Source of the DNA: Nitrospirota bacterium
GTDB taxonomy: Bacteria; Nitrospirota; UBA9217
DNA: 10,036 nucleotides
Assembly (NCBI GenBank): GCA_029858565.1
Contig: JAOUEV010000091.1
Location: forward strand, 1-10,036
Reading direction: 5' to 3'
In this document: positions 3-10,036 of the stretch, in pieces
Layout of the letters: each line of letters begins with the position of its first letter
Position numbering within the stretch: position 1 is the stretch's first letter
The notes under the pieces: model-generated
Database searches by the model: none
What the model saw: only the letters and a program-made list of their open reading frames with translations
What the model was told of the DNA's origin: nothing
Translations under genes and position numbers: made by a program

Positions 3-1406
3 GACCACATCCACCCCGGCGACCGGGACCGGATCCAGGAAGGCCTGCAAACGCTTTCCGAGAAGGGTCTTCACAGCCACGAATACCGGTTCCGGCACAA
101 GGACGGCACCTACCGGTGGATGCTCGACCGCGTCCGCGTGGTGCGCAACAAAGAGGGCAGGCCCGTCGAGTGCGTGGGTTCGTGGATGGACATCACCGAG
201 CGCAAAAAGGCGGAAGAGCTGCTCACCCGGTACCGGATACAGCTCGAGGAGATGGTGTCCGGCAGGACCCGGGAACTGCAGGACACCATCATGAAGCTCC
301 ATGAGGAGATCGACGAGCGGAAAAAGCTGACCGAGGAGCTCCACAGGAGCAAGCTGTTCCTGACCAACATCCTGAACAGCATCCAGGACGGCATCTGCGT
401 CCTGGATGCTCACCGCAAAATCATGCTCGTGAACAATGCCGTGGCGAAGTGGGTGCCCGAGGCCGCGCAGATCGGGTTCCGGACCCATACCTGCGCAGAC
501 CTGTTCCACAAGCTCGGGAAATGCGACGACTGCATCGCCGATTCCCTGCTCGAAACCGGCCGGATGCGGACCCTGGTGTTCCCCGGCGGTGATGAGAAGG
601 ATAAGAAGTGGTTCGAGGTCCATTCCTATCCCCTGAATACCGAGGACGGAAGGAACGTCGGGCGCGTCGATTACATCCGCGACGTGACCGCCGCGAAGAT
701 CCTGGAAGAGCGCATCACGCACTACCAGGAACAGCTCCGCGCCCTCAACTACGAAATGGCCGCGCTCGAGAACCGTCAGCAGCGTCGTATTGCCCAGGAG
801 CTGCACGACAGCATCCCTCAGACCCTTGCCTTCTGCAAAATGCGTCTGGAGTCCCTTGAGCAGGGGTGCGCCCCGCTTTCGTCCTGTGCAGACAGATCCA
901 CCGGCTTCAAGGAGATCTACGGTCTCCTGGACACCAGCATAGCGGAGGCGCGGAGCCTGATCTTCAAGCTCGCGCCCCCGGTGTTGTATGAGCTGGGGCT
1001 CGAACCCGCGGTCCAGCAGCTCCTGTACCAGTTCGGAAAGGTCCACCCCGTCGAATTCCACTTTGACGGCGCGGGACGCAGCGCGCCGATACAGGGTGAA
1101 GGCGCGGCGATCATGTACGGCATGGTCCGGGAATTGATCACCAACTGCATCAAGCACTCGGGTGCAAGCAGCATCGGCGTAACCGTCGGCAGGCGCGGCG
1201 GGGACCTGGTCCTCCAGGTCCGGGACAACGGGAAAGGTGTCGATCCGGCGTGCATCGGGCAGCGAATGCAGGCGGAGGGGGGCGGATTCGGCCTGTTCAG
1301 CATCCGTGAGCGCGTGCGCCACATGGAAGGCGTATTTGCCATTGAATGCAACGAAGGGGGCGGCGCGTGCGCAACCATCCGCATTCCCCTGAGGCAGCTG
1401 CAATAG
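3..1406 (+). CDS. PAS-domain sensor histidine kinase, HisKA_3 (NarX/UhpB/NreB-like) class; 5' end lies outside the window
   Basis: The frame is open from base 3 (DHIHPGDRDRIQ...EYRFRHKDGTYRWM, a PAS_3/PAC segment), so ATG120 is internal. It then encodes a coiled coil, a second PAS with C-x9-C-x2-C, H-box RIAQELHDSIPQTL, N-box ELITNCIKHS, G1 VRDNGKG and G2 GGFGLFSIRER. Stop TAG 1404-1406. Confidence 0.95.
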   Translation, partial: DHIHPGDRDRIQEGLQTLSEKGLHSHEYRFRHKDGTYRWMLDRVRVVRNKEGRPVECVGSWMDITERKKAEELLTRYRIQLEEMVSGRTRELQDTIMKLHEEIDERKKLTEELHRSKLFLTNILNSIQDGICVLDAHRKIMLVNNAVAKWVPEAAQIGFRTHTCADLFHKLGKCDDCIADSLLETGRMRTLVFPGGDEKDKKWFEVHSYPLNTEDGRNVGRVDYIRDVTAAKILEERITHYQEQLRALNYEMAALENRQQRRIAQELHDSIPQTLAFCKMRLESLEQGCAPLSSCADRSTGFKEIYGLLDTSIAEARSLIFKLAPPVLYELGLEPAVQQLLYQFGKVHPVEFHFDGAGRSAPIQGEGAAIMYGMVRELITNCIKHSGASSIGVTVGRRGGDLVLQVRDNGKGVDPACIGQRMQAEGGGFGLFSIRERVRHMEGVFAIECNEGGGACATIRIPLRQLQ

Positions 1407-1441: not shown

Positions 1442-2071
1442 ATGATCGACCTGATCATCGCAGACGACCACGCCATCTTTCGGCACGGGCTCAAAAACCT
1501 TCTTGCCCAGGAGCCCGACTTCCGGATCCTGGCGGAAGCGGACAATGGGCAGAAAGCGCTCCAGGACATTCGCGACCTGCGGCCCCACGTCGCGGTCCTC
1601 GACCTGTCCATGCCGTGCATGAACGGAATCGAAGTCGTCGCGGAAGTACGGCGCAACAAGCTGGCCACCCGCTGCATCCTGCTCACTGTGCATGACGACG
1701 CGGAAATCGCGGCAACGGCGATCCAGACAGGAACTGCCGGCTATCTCCTCAAGAATCATACGTTCCAGGAAATAAATCAGGCCATCAGAACCGTGGCCGG
1801 CGGCAGGAACTACCTCTCCCCGGAACTCATAACCCTTCTGGCGGATCAGACGCGCCTCGCTCAAGCGTCTCAACGCCTGACCCGTCGTGAGCAAGAGGTC
1901 CTGCGGCTCGTCGCGCAAGGCCTGTCGGCCAAGGAGATCGCCTCGAAGCTCGTTATCAGCGAGAGGACCGTTGATACCCACAAAACCCATATCATGAGCA
2001 AGCTGGACATCCACTCGACCCCCGCACTTATCAGCTATGCCCTCAGGAACAAGCTCGTGACCAGCGGCTAG
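1442..2071 (+). CDS. NarL/FixJ-family response regulator (REC + LuxR HTH)
   Basis: IADDH acidic pocket, VLDLSMP phosphoacceptor, YLLK, and LuxR HTH LTRREQEVLRLVAQGLSAKEIA...TVDTHKTHIMSKL. SD GGAGG lies just upstream; 35 nt after the kinase stop. Confidence 0.96.
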   Translation: MIDLIIADDHAIFRHGLKNLLAQEPDFRILAEADNGQKALQDIRDLRPHVAVLDLSMPCMNGIEVVAEVRRNKLATRCILLTVHDDAEIAATAIQTGTAGYLLKNHTFQEINQAIRTVAGGRNYLSPELITLLADQTRLAQASQRLTRREQEVLRLVAQGLSAKEIASKLVISERTVDTHKTHIMSKLDIHSTPALISYALRNKLVTSG

Positions 2072-2237
2072 CAACTCTTCGCGCTTGGGATCCTTCTGCC
2101 ATCACGCTCCGCGCCGCGTCGGAAATGACACAGCACGTTGCCGCGCTTTACGCTGAATTGCGCTTTTCTGCAGATAATTCCTCCGGCCTGCGTCAAAGCG
2201 ATGTTCGCATCACATCTTCCCACTGTTCTGTGTACAA

Positions 2238-2280
2238 CTACGTAATTTACCTGACCGAAACCTACGGTATTGCAACGATG
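2238..2280 (+). promoter_or_regulatory. Possible regulator-binding repeats upstream of the two-CW operon
   Basis: Locally AT-richer intergenic region with two CTACG-initiated units 24 nt apart (CTACGTAATTTACCTGA and CTACGGTATTGCAACGA). Only weak pattern evidence. Confidence 0.25.
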
Positions 2281-2360
2281 CAGCCGGCATGCATCTTTGC
2301 TATGTTCACTTGAGACCGGAACAGCATGACACCATGCTGTCAGTCATCAGGAGATTTATC

Positions 2361-2711
2361 ATGAGAAAGATGAATTGCTGGGAATTTCACAAGTGCGGAC
2401 GGGAATTGGGGGGGCATAACCGCGCGCAGGGCGTGTGCCCCACCGCGGTTCAGACAGCCTTGAACGGCGTGCATGGAGGCCTCCATGGCGGTCGGTCATG
2501 CTGGATCGTTTCGGGAACCTTGTGCGACGGAGAGCAGCAGGGTTCCTTTGGCGACAAGTTTCAGCGATGCGGACAGTGCAAGTTCTACCGGTTGGTGATG
2601 CAAGAGGAGGGCGCCCAATTCAACCTGTCGGCGGTCCTGCTGGGAAAACTCAAGGCCGGGCTGAAAAGAAGGACCGCTGATGCACGGGGCCCGGAGAACG
2701 GCGCCCTATGA
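2361..2711 (+). CDS. Standalone Cys-rich two-CW domain protein (116 aa), function unknown
   Basis: SD AGGAG at 2349-2353 precedes ATG2361, which is preferred over ORF start 2289. Pattern NCWEFHKC...VCP...GGRSCWIVSGTLC...CGQCKFY has 7 Cys and two CW motifs, matching the two-CW family as I recall it. The stop overlaps the next start (ATGA, 2708-2711). Confidence 0.85.
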   Translation: MRKMNCWEFHKCGRELGGHNRAQGVCPTAVQTALNGVHGGLHGGRSCWIVSGTLCDGEQQGSFGDKFQRCGQCKFYRLVMQEEGAQFNLSAVLLGKLKAGLKRRTADARGPENGAL

Positions 2712-4783
2712 CGGAGCACACCGGCTCCTCGGCCGTGCAGCTGCGTTCGGCAGAACAGTATGCGCCGCACTCTGCCTCCGCGGACCCGCCGCAATTTCGC
2801 GGCCCATGGCCGGGCGCGGGGGCCGGGACCGATCCCGCGGTACTGCTCTCGACCCTCACGACCGTGCTGGACAACCTGGACGCGGCCGTGTACGCGTCGG
2901 ACATGGAAACCCACGAGCTCCTGTACGTGAATCCCTATGTGCGAAAGGCAGTCGGATCGGGCATCAAGCCGGGAGCACGGTGCTGGCAGGTGCTCCAGAG
3001 CGGGCTGACCGGACCCTGCTCCTTTTGCACGAACAGCCGCCTGATCAACGCCAACGGGAAACCCGCGGGCGTTCACACCTGGGAATTCCAGAACACCGTC
3101 AACAGCCGCTGGTACTTCATCAGCGATCAGGCCATCCCCTGGATCGACGGAAGATTGGTGCGGCTGGAGATCGCGACGGACATCACGGCGCGGAAGCTCG
3201 CGGAGCAGGATGATGCCGTCACGCGCGACCTCCTGGAGCAAGGCATTCAAGAGCGGACTCGCGACCTGAAAGAGGAGATCGCGGAGAGAAAAAAAACGGA
3301 GGAGACGCTCCGCCGGAGCGAGGAAAACTACCGGACGCTCGTAGACACCATGCATGAGACCATGACGGTGCTCGCGGCCGACGGGACCGTTCTGTTCGCC
3401 AATGCGCGGACCGCGCTCAATTTCTGCAACGGCACGCCTGGTGACGTGATCAACAGGAACATCACGGAGTTCATTCCCCCGGAATCTGCGAAAAACCATA
3501 TACGGGACTACAACGCGGTTCTCAGGGAGAGCCGCCCGTTGACGCGGGAAGTGCAGACAGTACTGCAGGGGCGGCGGCGCTGGTTTCTCAATACGCTGAC
3601 GCCGGTCCGTTTCGGGGAATCGGGACAACCTGCGGTCCTTTCGATGTCCGTGGATATCACGGACCGCGTAGCCGCGGAGAAGTCGCTTCGGGAAAGCTGG
3701 CTAAGGTTCCGGCAGCTCGCCGAGAACGTCAACGAGGTCTTCTGGGTCCGGGACGCGGTCACGCGGGAAATCCTCTATATCAACCCGGCCTACGAAGCGA
3801 TCTGGGGCAGAACATGCCAGAGCATGTACGAACATCCCGAGTCGTTCTCCAATAGCGTGCATCCCGATGACGCAAAGCGCGTCGCTGCAGCGGTGCGGAA
3901 GCAGCAGGACGGATGCCCGTTTAATGAGGAGTACCGCATCATCCGGCCGGATAACACAGTACGCTGGATCTGGGCGCGCACCTTTCCGGTGCGCGATGAG
4001 TCCGGCGCCACGGTCCGCTACGCCGGAATTGCCGAGGACATCACCGAACGTCATTCGGCGAAGGAAAAGCTGCGGGACTATGCAAGCCGGCTCAAATCGC
4101 TCTCCCGCCGCCTCGTCGAGGCGCAGGAGACGGAGCGGCGCCGGATCGCGCAGGAGTTGCATGACGAGATCGGCCAGTCCCTGACCATGCTGAAGTTCGG
4201 CATCGCGAAACTCGACGATCTTGTTCCGGAAAAGGACCGGAGCGAGGTGGAGGGGCTGCGCGCCCTGGCAGGGGATCTCATGGAAAAAGTGCGCGCACTG
4301 TCGCTCAACCTGCGGCCGTCGATGCTGGACGACCTCGGCTTGCTGCCCGCGCTTCTGTGGCAGACCGAAACATTCTCGCAGAAGACCGGCGTGCAGGTGA
4401 AATTCCAGCATTCAGGGCTTGACCGGAGGTTCCCCCAGGACGTGGAGACAACGGCGTACCGCATTGCGCAGGAAGCGCTGACCAATGTCGCCCGCCACTC
4501 AGGCGCGCGCGAGGCGGCATTGACCGTCCTTGTGCGCGACAACGAGCTTCTGCTCAGGATCAAGGACGGTGGCCGCGGTTTCGATCCTGCGGCGCTCCCG
4601 GCCGGCGGAGTCGGGGCCGGCCTTTCTGGGATCCGCGAGCGGCTGGAGATGGTGGGGGGGCGCTTGACGATCGATACGGCCCCGGAAAACGGCGCGTTGC
4701 TCACAGCAGCGATCCCCCTCGGGAAACAGCTCATGCTAAAGGCGGAACACCATGAACACTCTATCTCTCGTGCTGGCCGATGA
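2708..4783 (+). CDS. Cytoplasmic triple-PAS sensor histidine kinase, HisKA_3 class
   Basis: Three PAS/PAC repeats ending in DITARK, DITDRV and DITERH; no TM segment. H-box RRIAQELHDEIGQSLT, LRPSMLDDLGL, N-box QEALTNVARHS, G1 IKDGGRGF, G2 GAGLSGIRER. Confidence 0.96.
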   Translation: MTEHTGSSAVQLRSAEQYAPHSASADPPQFRGPWPGAGAGTDPAVLLSTLTTVLDNLDAAVYASDMETHELLYVNPYVRKAVGSGIKPGARCWQVLQSGLTGPCSFCTNSRLINANGKPAGVHTWEFQNTVNSRWYFISDQAIPWIDGRLVRLEIATDITARKLAEQDDAVTRDLLEQGIQERTRDLKEEIAERKKTEETLRRSEENYRTLVDTMHETMTVLAADGTVLFANARTALNFCNGTPGDVINRNITEFIPPESAKNHIRDYNAVLRESRPLTREVQTVLQGRRRWFLNTLTPVRFGESGQPAVLSMSVDITDRVAAEKSLRESWLRFRQLAENVNEVFWVRDAVTREILYINPAYEAIWGRTCQSMYEHPESFSNSVHPDDAKRVAAAVRKQQDGCPFNEEYRIIRPDNTVRWIWARTFPVRDESGATVRYAGIAEDITERHSAKEKLRDYASRLKSLSRRLVEAQETERRRIAQELHDEIGQSLTMLKFGIAKLDDLVPEKDRSEVEGLRALAGDLMEKVRALSLNLRPSMLDDLGLLPALLWQTETFSQKTGVQVKFQHSGLDRRFPQDVETTAYRIAQEALTNVARHSGAREAALTVLVRDNELLLRIKDGGRGFDPAALPAGGVGAGLSGIRERLEMVGGRLTIDTAPENGALLTAAIPLGKQLMLKAEHHEHSISRAGR

Positions 4784-5405
4784 CCATTACGTTGTCAGGC
4801 AGGGACTTCGGTCGCTGCTTGAAAAGGACCCCTTCTGCGAAGTTATCGGCGAGGCTGGTGACGGCGTGGAAACCCTCAGAAAAGTAACGGCGCTCAGGCC
4901 GGAAATGCTGATTCTCGACCTTATGATGCCGCTCATGAACGGCATCGAGGTGCTGAAGAGGATCAAACGCGCTTCGCTCCCGACGCAGGTGGTCGTTCTC
5001 TCCATGTACAATACCGCGGCATACGCCGCGGAAGCTTTGAAACAGGGCGCGCTGGGCTACGTTCTGAAGGACGCGCTCGGGCCTGATCTGCTGAATGCCC
5101 TGCGGGAGGTCCGTGCAGGCCGCCGGTACCTCAGTCCGCCCCTCTCGGAAAGCACTGTCGAATTTTATCTCGAAAAGACCGCATCAACAGGCATCGACCC
5201 CGGCGAGACCCTGACCGCCCGGGAGCGGGAGATTCTGCGCCTCGTGGGCGAAGGGCTGAAAAGCAAGGAGATCGCCGCGCGGCTTTTGATCAGCCTCCGC
5301 ACCGTGGAAACCCACCGGTCCAATATCATGCGAAAGCTCGCCATCACCAGCCAGGCCGGCCTGGTACGCTGTGCCCTGGAGCGCGACCTCTCCCCGCTGA
5401 CCTGA
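4752..5405 (+). CDS. NarL/FixJ-family response regulator (REC + LuxR HTH)
   Basis: LADDH, ILDLMMP, YVLK, and LTAREREILRLVGEGLKSKEIA...TVETHRSNIMRKL. Overlaps the kinase 3' end by 32 nt. Confidence 0.96.
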   Translation: MNTLSLVLADDHYVVRQGLRSLLEKDPFCEVIGEAGDGVETLRKVTALRPEMLILDLMMPLMNGIEVLKRIKRASLPTQVVVLSMYNTAAYAAEALKQGALGYVLKDALGPDLLNALREVRAGRRYLSPPLSESTVEFYLEKTASTGIDPGETLTAREREILRLVGEGLKSKEIAARLLISLRTVETHRSNIMRKLAITSQAGLVRCALERDLSPLT

Positions 5406-5459: not shown

Positions 5460-6896
5460 AAGAGCATCTTCCTGGAGAAGGACCTGGGGGAGCTGCTGAC
5501 GCTGGAAAATAAAATGAGCGCGGATTCCTACCAGCACTCGATGAAGGTCTATTCCCGGGTCATTGTGATCATGCTGGCGGTATTTGCCGTAGCGATCGCC
5601 GTGAGCATACTGTCAAGCCTGGCCATTTCCCGGAGCATCATCAGGTTCCTTGGCGGCGAACCTGCCGTCATTGCCAGGATCGCGAACGAGGTCTCGAAAG
5701 GCGACCTTTCTGTTGCCGTGAACGTGCGGAACGGCGACACCGCCAGCGTCATGGCGGCCATGAAAAAAATGGTGGAAAACCTGCGCGGCGTGGGAACGAC
5801 CGCGGAACAGATCGCCGGCGGGGACCTGACCGTCACTGCAACCCTTCTTTCCGACAAGGACACGCTCGGGAAATCGCTCAAGACCATGATCGAGAAGCTG
5901 CGCACCGTGGTTTCGGACGTGAAGAACGCGGCGGACAACGTGGCGAGCGGCTCCCAGCAGCTGTCCTCGGGCGCCGAGCAGATGTCCCAGGGGACCACGG
6001 AACAGGCGTCGTCCACCGAGGAAGCATCGTCGTCGGTGGAGGAGATGAATGCCACGATCCGCCAGAACGCGGACAATGCTGCCCAGACCGAGAAAATCGC
6101 GAGGAAAGCCGCGAACGACGCGCAGGAGAGCGGCAAGTCAGTGACCGAAACCGTGTCCGCGATGAAGCAGATCGCCGAAAAGATCGGGATCATCGAGGAG
6201 ATCGCGCGCCAGACGAACCTTTTGGCCCTGAACGCGGCCATCGAGGCGGCCCGGGCCGGAGAACACGGCAAGGGCTTTGCCGTGGTTGCGTCGGAAGTGC
6301 GGAAGCTGGCTGAGCGGAGCCAGTCGGCGGCAGCGGAGATCACCCAACTCTCGGGATCGAGCGTGGAGGTTGCGCAGCGGGCAGGCGATATGCTGGCCAA
6401 GCTGGTGCCGGACATCCAAAAGACCGCGGAGCTGGTGCAGGAGATCAACGCCGCGTCCAAGGAGCAGGCCGGCGGCGCTGACCAGATCAACGGCGCGATC
6501 CAGCAGCTGAATACGGTGGTGCAGCAGAACGCGGGCGCGGCCGAGGAAATGTCGTCGACCGCCGAGGAGTTGAGCTCTCAGGCCGAGCAGTTGCAAGAGA
6601 CCATCGCCTTCTTCAAGATCGACGGCGCGGACCGCGAGGCTGTGCGGAAGATCGCGGGCAAGAAGGAAAAAGCCGCCAAGGCGACGCATCAGGTCCATGT
6701 GGCGCACCTGGCCCAGGCCGCGGCAAAGGCCAAGCAGCCGCTCCAGCCGGCGGGCGTTGCTCTCAACCTCGGCCACAACGGCCATGGCAAGGGCGATGGC
6801 AAAGATGAGGAGTTTGAGAAATTCTATCGTGACAGGAGCCAGAGGCTCTCGCAAAAAACGCGGCCTTGCGGAACTGCACGGGGCGTGCTGTTGTGA
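5460..6896 (+). CDS. mcp: Methyl-accepting chemotaxis protein (probably 34H class), N-terminally truncated (no TM1 and most of the sensor domain missing); possible pseudogene
   Basis: A single TM ([23 protein letters not shown]), then GGEP-HAMP, a second HAMP, and an intact hairpin tip [37 protein letters not shown]. The first ATG is at 5514. The frame is open back to the TAA at 5430, and an in-frame AAG at 5460 sits 7 nt after SD GGAGG. The EFEKF pentapeptide is followed by a 23-aa extension. Confidence 0.9.
6309..6827 (+). repeat. Paralogous direct repeat, copy 1 (copy 2 is 7989-8507, offset 1680 nt)
   Basis: By manual comparison, the MCP C-terminal halves differ at 9 of 172 aa, with many additional synonymous changes. 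Confidence 0.9.
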
Positions 6897-6939: not shown

Positions 6940-7719
6940 ATGATCAAAAGAGCGCTGGTAGTCGTTCTGCTGGGGGCGCTGACGGGGTATGCCTATCTGC
7001 CCGCCCATGCCGCCCATCCCCTGATCACCGACGATACGGGCACCCAAGGGAAGGGCAAGTTTCAGTTTGAGCTCAATGCAGCCTACGGCATGGACAGGGA
7101 ATCCGCGGCTGGCATAACCGTGGAGAGCAGAGAGCTGGAATTCGAAGCAGTGCTCGCCTTCGGCATCGCGGACCCGGTGGACGTCTTTGTTGCAGCGCCA
7201 TACGCACGCGTCCGCGAGACGGCCGGCGGCGTCACGTCGAAGGAGAACGGACCGCTCGACGCGGCCGTGGGCCTGAAATGGCGCTTCTACGAAAATGCGG
7301 CCGGATTGAGCCTGGGCGTGAAACCGGCGGTCATCCTGCCAACAGGCGACGAGGAGAAAGGACTCGGCGCCGGGAAGACAGGCTATGAGCTCTTTTTCGT
7401 CGCCACGCAGGAGGCTGAGCCCTGGGCGTTCCATCTGAACCTGGGCTACCTGCGGAACAACAATGATTTCGACGAGCGAAAGGACCTGTACCACGCGTCG
7501 CTCGCAACGGAGCATAAGATCGGGAGCATTCGCCTGGCGGGAAACGTGGGCATTGAGCGGAATTCCGATAAAACAGCGGACGACGATCCTGCATTCGGCA
7601 TCGTGGGGATCATCTATGGCATTCGGGAGAACCTGGATATCGACGCCGGATACAAGATCGGGCTTACGAAGTCCGAGACGGACGGAACGCTGCTGGCGGG
7701 GCTGGCGTATCGGTTCTGA
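6940..7719 (+). CDS. Putative outer-membrane beta-barrel 'transporter' (Phenol_MetA_deg/SphA-like family)
   Basis: Signal peptide MIKRALVVVLLGALTGYAYLPAHA, N-terminal AHPLITDDTGTQGKG motif, amphipathic strands (GLKWRF, VILPTGD, HLNLGY) and a C-terminal BAM signal LAYRF. SD GGAGG upstream. Confidence 0.8.
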   Translation: MIKRALVVVLLGALTGYAYLPAHAAHPLITDDTGTQGKGKFQFELNAAYGMDRESAAGITVESRELEFEAVLAFGIADPVDVFVAAPYARVRETAGGVTSKENGPLDAAVGLKWRFYENAAGLSLGVKPAVILPTGDEEKGLGAGKTGYELFFVATQEAEPWAFHLNLGYLRNNNDFDERKDLYHASLATEHKIGSIRLAGNVGIERNSDKTADDDPAFGIVGIIYGIRENLDIDAGYKIGLTKSETDGTLLAGLAYRF

Positions 7720-7820
7720 TCCGGGCTGGGTGCGGACGGCTGTCCGGGGATGAAGGCGGATAAAAACAGCGCCTTCGGTTACGGCGCCGAAGCGTCGAAC
7801 GTCACGGTAAAGGAGGAAAG

Positions 7821-8507
7821 AAGCAGATCGCCTCCCTGATTGGGGGTGAGCCTGCTTATGTCACCGAGATCGCGAACCAGGTATCGCGAGGCGACCTGTC
7901 CGTGGATATTGCCCTCGGGAAAAACGACGACAGCGTGATGGCCGCGATGGGCCGCATGGTGGAAAACCTTCGCGGCGTGGGAAAATCTGCGGAGCGGAGC
8001 CAGTCGGCTGCGGCCGAGATCACCCAGCTTTCGGGTTCGAGCGTGGAAGTTGCGCAGCGGGCTGGAGAGATGCTTGCCAAGCTGGTGCCGGACATCCAGA
8101 AGACCGCTGAGCTGGTGCAGGAGATCAATGCCGCGTCCAAGGAACAGTCGTCGGGAGCCGACCAGATCAACGGCGCGATCCAGCAGCTGAACACGGTGGT
8201 GCAGCAGAACGCGGGAGCTGCGGAAGAAATGTCGTCGACTGCCGAGGAGTTGTCCTCCCAGGCCGAGCAGCTGCAGGAGACGATCTCGTTCTTCAAGGTG
8301 GACGGCGCGGACCGCGAAGCGGTAAGAAAGCTCGCGGGAAAGAAAGAAAAAGCTGCGAAGGCCACGCACCAGGTCCATGTGGCGCATTTGGCGCAGGCAG
8401 CGGCAAAGGCGAAGCAGGCGCTCCAGCCTGTGGGCGTGGCGCTTAATCTCGGTCACAACGGCCACGGCAAGGGCGACGGGAAAGATGAGGAGTTTGAAAA
8501 ATACTAG
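7821..8507 (+). pseudogene. mcp: MCP paralogue remnant: no start codon, TM or sensor domain, plus an in-frame 507-bp deletion that removes the signalling tip
   Basis: The frame reads KQIASLIGGEPAYVTEIANQVSRGDL...ENLRGVGKSAE|[10 protein letters not shown]...EEFEKY*. It aligns to MCP1 on both sides of the junction at about 7989-7994 but lacks the MCP1 segment 5802-6308. Confidence 0.88.
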
Positions 8508-8609
8508 GAAGACAGAGACGAGTGACAAGTGACGAGCGACAAGGAGCGGCGGGACAAGTTCTTACTCGTCTCTCGTCAAGCGAAGCGATCGTCACTCGTC
8601 ACTTTCTTC
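8508..8609. repeat. Intergenic heptamer-repeat inverted element (RAGWGAC / GTCWCTY units)
   Basis: Left arm: GAGTGAC-AAGTGAC-GAGCGAC (8520-8540). Right arms: ACTCGTCTCT (8564-8573, complement of 8514-8523) and GTCACTCGTCACTT (8591-8604, 13/14 complement of 8527-8540). Confidence 0.8.
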
Positions 8610-8623
8610 ACGAGGAGGTCATC

Positions 8624-9154
8624 ATGAACGTGGCTGAAATGACCCAAACAACGCAATATCTGACCTACAAGCTCGGCGACGAGGTGTTCGCCCTGGACAT
8701 CGGCAAGGTCCGGGAGGTGCTGGACTTCACCGAGGTGACGAAGGTGCCGAACATGCCGGATTTCATGCTCGGTGTGATCAACCTTCGCGGAAGCGTGGTG
8801 CCGGTGGTTGACCTGCGGACGCGGTTCCACATGCCCAGGAGCGAGCAGACGGTGAATACCTGTATTATTATCACCGAGGTGCAGGTGGACGATGCCGTCA
8901 CGGTGCTGGGCTGCCTGGCTGACTCGGTGCAGGAGGTGCTGGACCTGGAGCCGCACCAGATCGAGCCTGCGCCGAAGATCGGGACGAAGCTCCGGACCGA
9001 CTTCATCCGGGGCATGGGGAAGCACAACAACCGGTTTATCATTATCCTGGACATCGACAAGGTCTTTTCTGTGGAAGAAGTGTCGATAGCAGCGGCGCTC
9101 GGCGCGACCGCCGGATGTCCGGTGGCGCACCAGGCGCCGGCGCAGGGAAAGTGA
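8624..9154 (+). CDS. cheW: Chemotaxis coupling protein CheW
   Basis: SD GAGGAGG at 8612-8618 precedes ATG8624. Motifs QYLTYKLGDEVFALDIGKVREVL, TKVPNMPDFMLGVINLRGSVVPVVDLR, LADSVQEV and FIIILDIDKVF. Confidence 0.96.
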   Translation: MNVAEMTQTTQYLTYKLGDEVFALDIGKVREVLDFTEVTKVPNMPDFMLGVINLRGSVVPVVDLRTRFHMPRSEQTVNTCIIITEVQVDDAVTVLGCLADSVQEVLDLEPHQIEPAPKIGTKLRTDFIRGMGKHNNRFIIILDIDKVFSVEEVSIAAALGATAGCPVAHQAPAQGK

Positions 9155-9189
9155 GGCGCAGGTTCTTCTCAGCTGACGGATGAGTGCTG

Positions 9190-9223
9190 GCGACCATTTG
9201 TTTATCATATGGTCGCTTTTTTT
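9190..9223 (+). terminator. Rho-independent terminator after cheW
   Basis: Stem GCGACCAT (9190-9197) / ATGGTCGC (9209-9216) followed by T7 (9217-9223), 35 nt after the cheW stop. Confidence 0.88.
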
Positions 9224-9327
9224 ATTGCTCAAAATAGAAGCAAAGTGAAGTAAACAGCAACTAATCAAACCTTCCTGCATACTAATATTCGCAGCATACA
9301 ATCAATTATCCTAAAAATGGCAGTTGA

Positions 9328-9458
9328 AACCACAGATTAACACAGAAGAAAAACAAATTCGGACACTTACTTCTCTCCAGACATACACCAAAAGGGTGAA
9401 TCCTGTTTTCGTTTGGAGGTCTTGAATTATCGGGGTTTATTTGTGTTCATATTTGGTT
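9328..9458. repeat. Degenerate nested inverted repeat built from about 10-nt CACAGAT-type units
   Basis: AACCACAGATTAACACAGAA (9328-9347) vs ATTTGTGTTCATATTTGGTT (9439-9458) are 15/20 complementary. Inner pairs are CTCCAGAC/GTTTGGAG and CACC/GGTG. Confidence 0.6.
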
Positions 9459-9501
9459 AACAGCTTTTATCTAGGATTAAATATAATGCTTTTTTACATA
9501 A

Positions 9502-10036
9502 GATGGTCTCGTAAGAAGTCACACGGTACAAAGAGCCGCAAGCCGTGAATCAGATGTCCAGAAGCGGCCTGATCGCCTGATTGCCGCTGAAATTCGCAGC
9601 ATGTGGTCTTTGACAGCACAAGCTAGCGAGGAATAAGTGCCAAAGGGAGACGGTTTTCCATCTGTTTCTCGATTTCGGAATGCCGCCGCCCGGATGATGT
9701 TGATCGACGCTGCTTTTAGGTAAGCGGCGAAGCTCACTGCGGACATACCTCGGACGCGAAGGTCCTTGATTCCGGTCAAGCGATCAAGCTGGGACATGGT
9801 CCCTTCGATTCCCGCGCGGGATCGGTACCGATCCCGAAACTCGGGGGATGCTTCGTACACGCGCCGCCATGCCAGACGGATCGCTTTATCGTCGTACCTG
9901 AGTGAGCGTCCTTTTTTGACCGGCTTCGTCGGGCACGTTATCTTTCGAGAACAGCCGCGACAGGTTCTTTTTGAGAAGAACGCGATGTACCTGTCATTCT
10001 GGTGTTCAGTGTGTTCAGGCGTGCATCCCTCCGGGC
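9502..10036 (-). mobile_element. Insertion sequence (IS1182-like), right end; candidate terminal IR GATGGTCTCGTAAGAAGTC at 9502-9520
   Basis: GC content rises sharply at about 9501 and the transposase stop overlaps the candidate IR. The partner IR is outside the window, so the end is inferred. Confidence 0.72.
9519..10034 (-). CDS. Transposase C-terminus, IS1182-like (DDE_Tnp_1_6); 5' end lies outside the window
   Basis: The frame is open from the window edge: PEGCTPEH...FSKRTCRGCSRKITCPTK...FRDRYRSRAGIEGTMSQLDRLTGIKDLRVRG...AASINIIR. This contains the Cys cluster and the Y-x2-R-x3-E motif typical of IS1182/IS4-superfamily enzymes. Confidence 0.9.
   Translation of the reverse strand, partial: PEGCTPEHTEHQNDRYIAFFSKRTCRGCSRKITCPTKPVKKGRSLRYDDKAIRLAWRRVYEASPEFRDRYRSRAGIEGTMSQLDRLTGIKDLRVRGMSAVSFAAYLKAASINIIRAAAFRNRETDGKPSPFGTYSSLACAVKDHMLRISAAIRRSGRFWTSDSRLAALCTV

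Follow-up and report, generated by a model that had tools for sequence, protein, structure and literature searches.

A short contig of a Nitrospirota bacterium raises the question of what a small, cysteine-rich protein of the two-CW family does when its gene is coupled to those of a soluble histidine kinase and a NarL-type response regulator. The window analyzed here is the whole 10,036-bp contig (JAOUEV010000091.1; C80) of a 3.9-Mb draft genome (labeled G000), and the three genes occupy positions 2361-5405, where they encode three cytoplasmic proteins in a single, translationally coupled unit. It is proposed that the small protein is a trans-acting sensing subunit of this kinase built around a cysteine centre; taken as a whole chain, this is a reading that we consider quite possible while stopping short of calling it probable. 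Fusions of the two-CW domain in other proteins support its sensory role and its link to kinases. The features of the unit are as follows.

2072..2360, + strand: presumed promoter region, the 289-bp intergenic stretch upstream of the two-CW gene, with an AGGAG ribosome-binding site 8 nucleotides (nt) before the ATG
2361..2711, + strand: standalone two-CW protein of 116 amino acids with seven conserved cysteines, two C-W motifs and a long C-terminal helix (model residues 74-108); NF045718, 96.5 bits
2708..4783, + strand: soluble histidine kinase of 691 amino acids with three PAS domains, HisKA_3 and HATPase_c; Pfam, NCBIfam
2855..3202, + strand: first PAS domain of the kinase (residues about 50-165), with Cys92-x11-Cys104-x2-Cys107; cysteine conservation in relatives, profile match 9WEX_A
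3362..3670, + strand: PAS_4 of the kinase (residues 219-321); Pfam
3770..4033, + strand: PAS_3 of the kinase (residues 355-442); Pfam
4133..4321, + strand: HisKA_3 dimerisation/phospho-acceptor domain of the kinase (residues 476-538); Pfam
4445..4720, + strand: HATPase_c catalytic domain of the kinase (residues 580-671); Pfam
4752..5405, + strand: NarL/LuxR-type response regulator of 217 amino acids with Response_reg and a GerE helix-turn-helix, overlapping the kinase end by 32 nt; Pfam, NCBIfam

The two-CW gene lies in a frame spanning 2289-2711, and its ATG at 2361, 8 nt past AGGAG, gives a product of 116 amino acids. Its stop codon (TGA, 2709-2711) shares the tetranucleotide ATGA with the start codon of the kinase (ATG, 2708-2710), and the kinase frame ends at 4783, past the regulator ATG at 4752, which places the HisKA_3 kinase and its NarL/LuxR-type regulator in a single operon. 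ATGA overlaps of stop and start codons usually accompany proteins that work together. No membrane-like stretch was found in the small protein, the kinase or the regulator; their hydropathy, averaged over 19 residues, peaks at 0.58, 1.17 and 1.17, respectively. These coordinates, together with the residue positions and hydropathy values, bear out an earlier note on this DNA, which had described a soluble protein of 116 amino acids with seven cysteines and several histidines, tightly coupled by the ATGA and 32-nt overlaps. The GC content drops to 0.55 in 2001-2500. A consensus scan of the intergenic stretch 2072-2360 found no sigma-70-like site, and a promoter and terminator scan returned zero promoter-like sites, with terminator-like sites at the number expected from shuffled sequence.

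The small protein matches the NCBIfam model NF045718 (two_CW_domain) with 96.5 bits and an E value of 8.7e-28 against a cut-off of 35, profile positions 1-79 (of 80) aligning to residues 4-81, and the assignment as a standalone two-CW protein made in the earlier note is confirmed by this search. Its cysteines are found at positions 6, 12, 26, 47, 55, 70 and 73, two of them forming the C-W motifs C6-W7 and C47-W48, and its histidines at positions 10, 19, 38 and 42. Cysteine makes up 6.0% of its residues, compared with 1.3% in long frames of the same genome, an excess beyond chance. Among 190 copies of the domain, each of the seven cysteines is 96-100% conserved, together with N5, W7, R45, W48 and several glycines. 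His38 is conserved in only 54% of these copies, which makes histidine unlikely as a ligand. At about 80 residues, the domain is compact and rich in glycine, with small helices, and its seven invariant cysteines would hold it together. At E<=1e-3, a family profile built from 23 members retrieved 1807 protein clusters (representatives at 50% identity); tightening the threshold to E<=1e-10 left 1043. Two proteins, P0038 and P0040, carry two copies of the domain. ESM Atlas matches consisted of unnamed or "putative two-CW" clusters and some fused forms. A tree of 196 domain copies puts a paralogue from this genome (61% identity) closest to the small protein; with 111 of its 193 inner branches open, the tree has poor resolution and supports only this placement and the scatter of fused forms described below.

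Beyond this family, searches with the small protein and its relatives were negative. No Pfam family was found for the small protein at E<=0.01, and among 106 two-CW members scanned at E<=1, no family recurred: any one family matched at most four of the 106, with a best E value of 0.11. GAF gave no match in the small protein or in the 106 members at the same respective thresholds, nor did CZB (PF13682), a model that does fire on a methyl-accepting chemotaxis protein (MCP) elsewhere in the genome. A profile search of the PDB with the two-CW profile yielded zero matches at E<=1. AlphaFold2 reached a predicted local distance difference test (pLDDT) score of 70.7 with 23 sequences; with 106 sequences, the pLDDT was 89.3 and the predicted template modelling score (pTM) was 0.78. 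The confident model, obtained only from the deep alignment, predicts short helices followed by a long C-terminal helix at residues 74-108. In comparisons with solved structures, Foldseek gave best E values of 4.1 for the pLDDT 70.7 model and 6.0 for the pLDDT 89.3 model, while VIA-align against 48,161 PDB chains gave best Z values of 2.6 and 2.2, respectively, with none at Z>=5. These Z values are unusually low for a confidently predicted model, but the missing match is no proof of a new fold. Among known Cys-metal folds such as rubredoxin, zinc ribbon, zf-CW and WhiB-like domains, no clear sequence or fold relative of the two-CW domain emerged from Pfam, where no family recurred, or from the PDB profile search, Foldseek or VIA-align. 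A search of one literature library by domain name, by accession and by broader terms found no publication on the domain and no published function. The existence of the two-CW family is known, as NCBI has already catalogued it.

An indication of its role comes from proteins in which the two-CW domain is joined to other domains. A word-based search for longer homologues found only two, and the fusions were revealed by the exhaustive profile search. Among the 150 best representatives surveyed, 103 are shorter than 200 amino acids and were taken as standalone; all 47 of at least 200 amino acids were scanned with Pfam, and 34 of these 47 carry signalling domains. The partners found in the long proteins are listed below.

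Histidine kinase (HATPase_c, with or without HisKA, PAS, GAF, receiver (REC) or Hpt domains): 14 proteins
Receiver domain only: seven proteins
cNMP-binding Ser/Thr kinase (one also with PP2C): three proteins
GGDEF: two proteins
STAS: two proteins
MCP signalling domain: two proteins
PilZ, nucleotide cyclase, Usp and PAS alone: one protein each
Rubrerythrin-like domain: one protein
Epimerase: one protein
No Pfam family: 11 proteins

The two-CW domain is N-terminal in most of these fusions. In P0098, P0147 and P0174, it runs directly into HisKA-HATPase with nothing else before it; since these proteins hold no other possible input domain, the two-CW domain occupies the place of one. Two-CW-HisKA-HATPase fusions were also found at two loci of other genomes (L046 and L074), and in P0175, the domain is joined to a kinase carrying the cysteine-bearing PAS subtype of the kinase studied here (144 bits). 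The fusions are scattered over the domain tree and do not group together. From this architecture, we infer that the two-CW domain is a mobile sensory module. The earlier view of a domain lacking an established function and common in signalling contexts agrees with both the literature search and the fusion counts.

In two of the 47 long proteins, and in no others, the recognized partner lies outside signalling. In P0131 (488 amino acids), the two-CW domain precedes an NAD-dependent epimerase, while in P0084 (268 amino acids), it follows a rubrerythrin-like domain, which is a weak Pfam match of 32 bits. In classical rubrerythrins, this position is taken by a rubredoxin Fe(Cys)4 domain, which makes the placement in P0084 a hint of a redox function. 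In addition, about ten frames of 600-656 amino acids with an N-terminal two-CW domain (68-70 bits; e.g., G022:C63:24647-24832 and G030:C94:19893-20078) occur in the genomes of relatives, apparently a single group of fusions conserved within this bacterial family.

The mechanism considered here would make the small protein a free-standing copy of a cysteine-cluster input domain, fused to its output elsewhere and here supplied as a separate subunit made together with the kinase. Gene structure, family, cysteine conservation, fusions and neighbourhoods are observed; its metal binding, its signal and its interaction in trans with this kinase are what we infer. Judging from the conserved cysteines, the domain most probably carries a metal centre, either an Fe-S cluster or Zn or Fe bound by several cysteines. 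The subunit would dock on the kinase in trans, probably through the long C-terminal helix; in fused forms, the C-terminal two-CW helix leads into the kinase dimerisation helix or a PAS domain. Docking would alter autophosphorylation according to the redox or ligand state of the cysteine centre, and the kinase, which probably also senses for itself by a three-cysteine PAS domain resembling the Fe-S PAS domain of NreB, would integrate this input with that of its own PAS domains. The NarL-type regulator would then receive the signal and change the transcription of target genes. The signal is probably redox-related (oxygen, sulfide, other sulfur species or a metal) in view of the cysteine centre, the anaerobic bias of the record titles given below, and the fusion of a rubrerythrin-like domain with two-CW.

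Aligning the kinase with 29 homologues places its phospho-acceptor His485 (H box) and its ATP-binding N and G boxes in invariant columns. Residues about 50-165, without a Pfam assignment, belong to a PAS subtype with the motif Cys92-x11-Cys104-x2-Cys107, and the three cysteines are conserved in domains of 51-56% identity from six related genomes and in the other kinase of the window. This genome has 12 copies of the subtype among about 73 HATPase-bearing frames. A single-sequence search of the PDB with the domain gave chance TRIM7 matches only. With a profile, the best match was 9WEX_A (E 2e-4, 24.4 bits), a weak hit with a LOV PAS domain close behind at 22.2 bits. The entry 9WEX is the PAS domain of Bacillus licheniformis NreB, which binds a [2Fe-2S] cluster on Cys 63, 66 and 78 and senses sulfide (PMC13478379). 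C63-x2-C66 of NreB aligns with Cys104-x2-Cys107 of the kinase. An Fe-S PAS domain in this kinase is plausible on these residues, and the cysteine-bearing PAS kinase named in the earlier note is found as described, its best solved match being the Fe-S PAS domain of NreB at the weak level given above.

Nine two-CW matches over the family cut-off were found in this genome, and their neighbours were identified by our own gene calling followed by Pfam annotation. On contig C88, a two-CW paralogue at 7066-7410 of locus L017 overlaps a CheW gene at 7407-7958 by ATGA, with genes for a receiver protein and an MCP coming next; another two-CW gene on the same contig comes after an MCP gene, a receiver gene and a PAS-GAF-HD-GYP gene. 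Contig C142 carries tandem two-CW genes at 6998-7360 and 7442-7825 of locus L013, downstream of a PAS-GAF kinase and followed by a REC-HD-GYP gene at about 7810-8913 (a probable overlap) and a CZB-bearing MCP gene, a layout that recurs in other genomes (L023, L050, L065 and L130). Tight coupling of two-CW genes thus recurs with different partners, as seen in the ATGA overlap with CheW and the abutting REC-HD-GYP gene. On contig C6 (L009/L019), a two-CW match at 1895-2113 with an internal TAA lies between an MCP fragment and a CheW gene and may be a pseudogene or an assembly error. Further copies adjoin restriction-modification and DUF6901 genes and have no signalling neighbour. Standalone two-CW genes therefore couple to several kinds of signalling partner, or to none.

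The domain is widespread among relatives, being present in 41 of 60 related genomes (42 of 61 with the source genome included). Within the bacterial family of the source genome, 33 of 36 genomes have it, at up to 14 matches per genome; 14 control genomes have none. Among 29 loci of relatives, a signalling domain lies within 1.5 kb in ten, and a second two-CW gene in eight. In addition, the best 80 of at least 597 matching places on one-genome-per-species contigs were surveyed with hidden Markov models (HMMs) made from the Pfam-defined domains of this genome and run on stop-to-stop frames; these are weaker than Pfam, and the HisKA_3 model had three seeds. The record titles of these foreign loci name mostly anaerobic lineages. 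The nearest signalling domain was distributed as follows.

Fused (two-CW-HisKA-HATPase): two of 80 foreign loci
Adjacent, same strand: 10 of 80
Within 2 kb, either strand: 18 of 80
Within the locus only: eight of 80
None detected: 42 of 80

A signalling domain is fused or within 2 kb in 30 of the 80 loci, compared with 21% of 5000 random positions in this genome. Among these loci, some contexts without signalling genes recur. In Thermodesulfovibrionales (L034 and L039), the two-CW gene is flanked by selB and selA, on the opposite strand; in Electronema (L075 and L086), its neighbours on the same strand are the genes for OmpW and a DsbD-type protein, between which it lies; and in one marine genome (L057), it comes before a heavy-metal P-type ATPase gene. 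In a genome of the same genus (G002, contig C424; L151), an MCP with a C-terminal two-CW domain is encoded at about 2573-3793 of the locus on the minus strand, between a CheW gene and a PAS-HisKA-HATPase-REC kinase gene.

A number of these results weigh against the proposed role of the small protein as sensing subunit of this kinase. The order of a two-CW gene, a HisKA_3 kinase gene and a NarL-type regulator gene was found at none of the 80 foreign loci and none of the 29 loci of relatives, so the linkage of standalone homologues to PAS-HisKA_3/NarL pairs, which the earlier note had proposed as a test, fails, and the three-gene arrangement appears to be local to this genome, a local invention. 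The enrichment of signalling domains over the control is modest, the control coming from a different genome set and the home-made HMMs being of limited reach. No signalling domain was found at 42 of the foreign loci, nor by Pfam in 35 immediate neighbours from 22 of them, which instead include selB, selA, DsbD, heavy-metal P-type ATPase and multihaem cytochrome genes, among others; many standalone homologues accordingly work without an adjacent kinase. As for the kinase, none of 19 loci encoding relatives of its first PAS domain, all in other kinases, has a two-CW gene within 1.5 kb, and a specific partnership of two-CW with the cysteine-bearing PAS subtype was rejected, since the subtype occurs in two of the 14 two-CW/kinase fusions, which is about its background frequency. 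The match to 9WEX_A is itself weak, an unrelated LOV PAS domain scoring almost equally and the third cysteine being placed on the other side of C-x2-C. Finally, some kinases, the MCPs and four receiver proteins carry the domain at their C-terminus, a placement that suits adaptor or output functions no less than input. Of the sensor-subunit interpretation in the earlier note, the sensory role and the kinase link stand, given 34 signalling fusions among 47 long proteins and 14 with histidine kinases, whereas a conserved linkage to HisKA_3/NarL pairs does not.

The C-terminal placements lead to an explanation in which the two-CW domain is a structural Zn-cysteine module for interaction that does not sense, and bridges or scaffolds signalling proteins as an adaptor, possibly by pairing of two-CW domains. 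It would account for the placement of the domain at either end of its host proteins, where it can come behind HATPase, Hpt, MCP and receiver domains, for the tandem gene pairs (eight of the 29 loci of relatives, and contig C142), and for the many copies, which reach 14 per genome and two per protein in P0038 and P0040. It fits less well with the two-CW-HisKA-HATPase proteins, where the domain sits at the input place with no other N-terminal domain, and with seven invariant cysteines, which exceed the needs of a simple structural Zn site; we regard it as unlikely. A rather low likelihood is also given to the explanation that the small gene is merely co-transcribed, its protein acting elsewhere, for instance on the chemotaxis proteins of the contig or with two-CW paralogues, while the kinase senses by its own PAS domains only. 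The pairing of two-CW and kinase genes is indeed not conserved; the nearest paralogues adjoin genes for an HD-GYP protein and CheW, the contig has two MCP genes and a CheW gene, and the genome of the same genus encodes the fusion of an MCP with two-CW. What speaks for a functional tie is the ATGA overlap, generally a mark of cooperating proteins, and the existence of direct two-CW/kinase fusions.

Two further explanations concern the chemistry of the cysteines. The small protein could be a ferredoxin- or rubredoxin-like redox carrier or cluster donor that reduces, oxidizes or re-metallates an Fe-S centre in the cysteine-bearing PAS domain of the kinase, in line with the rubrerythrin-like/two-CW fusion and with the three conserved cysteines of a PAS domain resembling that of NreB. 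In NreB, the fourth ligand of the three-cysteine cluster is exchangeable (PMC13478379). This role appears quite improbable, as it draws on one fusion cluster with a weak Pfam match of 32 bits, most fusion partners have no obvious redox centre, and the relatives' kinases with the cysteine-bearing PAS domain lack the small gene. It is very improbable that the seven cysteines act as a metal-free thiol-disulfide switch. Their high content and the DsbD-type thiol-disulfide protein encoded next to some homologues (L075 and L086) would be in keeping with such a switch, but the protein is cytoplasmic, and an odd number of invariant cysteines in a glycine-rich domain with little hydrophobic core would be more typical of metal-organised folds.

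Among known systems, NreABC of Staphylococcus carnosus has a GAF-like nitrate-binding protein, NreA, as its accessory. It shares with the present unit a soluble accessory gene before the gene of a soluble PAS-HisKA_3 kinase, followed by a NarL-type regulator, and a PAS domain with conserved cysteines in the kinase. The accessory here is instead a seven-cysteine two-CW protein without a GAF match, and the kinase has three PAS domains and three conserved cysteines instead of four. Nitrate or nitrite respiration genes and sqr/pdo are absent from the 10,036-bp contig, the rest of the genome not having been searched for regulon genes. Because NreA is GAF-like and the contig has no nitrate respiration genes, the unit is not a member of NreABC; the NreABC-like architecture suggested in the earlier note holds for the gene order of accessory, HisKA_3 kinase and NarL-type regulator, while the accessory family and the missing nitrate respiration genes depart from it. 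In S. carnosus, the accessory NreA modulates the kinase NreB (PMC13478379). The NreBC system of B. licheniformis comes closer in its kinase: its PAS domain is the best solved match of the first PAS domain (9WEX, E 2e-4), a weak match with an aligned C-x2-C, and the two systems share three conserved cysteines, a HisKA_3 kinase and a NarL-type partner (PMC13478379). The third cysteine lies 11 residues after C-x2-C there and 11 before it here; NreBC lacks an accessory protein, and no sqr/pdo was seen on the contig here. The kinase studied here may belong with the three-cysteine NreB type.

Other sensory modules offer looser parallels. The metal of the CZB domain is held by a ligand set of three histidines and one cysteine. 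CZB (PF13682; TlpD and DgcZ) is described as a cytoplasmic metal-based module on chemoreceptors and diguanylate cyclases that reports oxidants or redox state (PMC6715182, PMC8262984). The deployment of two-CW on chemoreceptors and cyclases resembles that of CZB, although the two have no sequence or fold relation, and two-CW has seven cysteines and no conserved histidine. HbpS-SenS-SenR of Streptomyces reticuli is a three-component system in which the redox-sensing accessory HbpS, an extracellular haem- or iron-binding oligomer, controls a histidine kinase. Both systems have a separate accessory and a histidine kinase, whereas the accessory here is cytoplasmic and cysteine-rich. The three-gene unit adds a new variation to the accessory-assisted two-component systems.

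In a wider form of the proposal, the two-CW domain would be a seven-cysteine metal-cluster sensor with a novel fold, serving as a general plug-in input module of anaerobic bacteria and some archaea, fused or free, for kinases, chemoreceptors, c-di-GMP enzymes and Ser/Thr kinases, and here joined with an NreB-like Fe-S PAS kinase in a two-centre redox or sulfide device. All of this holding together is doubtful, and it is offered as a tentative possibility. The family is large (1807 clusters) and wired into nearly every class of bacterial signalling output. If the domain is a cysteine-cluster sensor, it would open a new class of cytoplasmic input domains, responsive to redox state, gases or metals, and would help to explain how poorly studied anaerobes, including Nitrospirota, Desulfobacterota and others, read redox conditions. 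As this precise gene trio seems to have arisen locally, the general importance lies in the domain and not in the operon. The locus provides a compact test case, in which three soluble proteins are made together and kinase activity lends itself to assay in the presence and absence of the small subunit.

Besides the unit, Pfam annotation of the contig shows a further pair of kinase and regulator genes, along with genes for MCPs, an outer-membrane protein and CheW and a fragment of a transposase gene. The second pair lies directly upstream of the unit and consists of a HisKA_3 kinase at 3-1406 (+ strand), cut by the contig end, and a NarL-type regulator at 1442-2071 (+ strand). This upstream kinase has the three-cysteine PAS motif (Cys164, 174 and 177) but no two-CW gene. 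The two regulators of the window are 41% identical, and its two kinases 27%. A frame of 201 amino acids at 7902-8507 (+ strand) is a truncated MCP, with 94% identity over 176 residues to the C-terminal part of the full MCP at 5514-6896 (+ strand), and looks like a recent partial duplication; the CheW gene at 8522-9154 comes directly after it. The GC content goes down to 0.44 at 9001-9500. A DDE transposase fragment (PF13751) at 9519-10034 on the minus strand runs past the contig end and may be the reason for the contig ending there.

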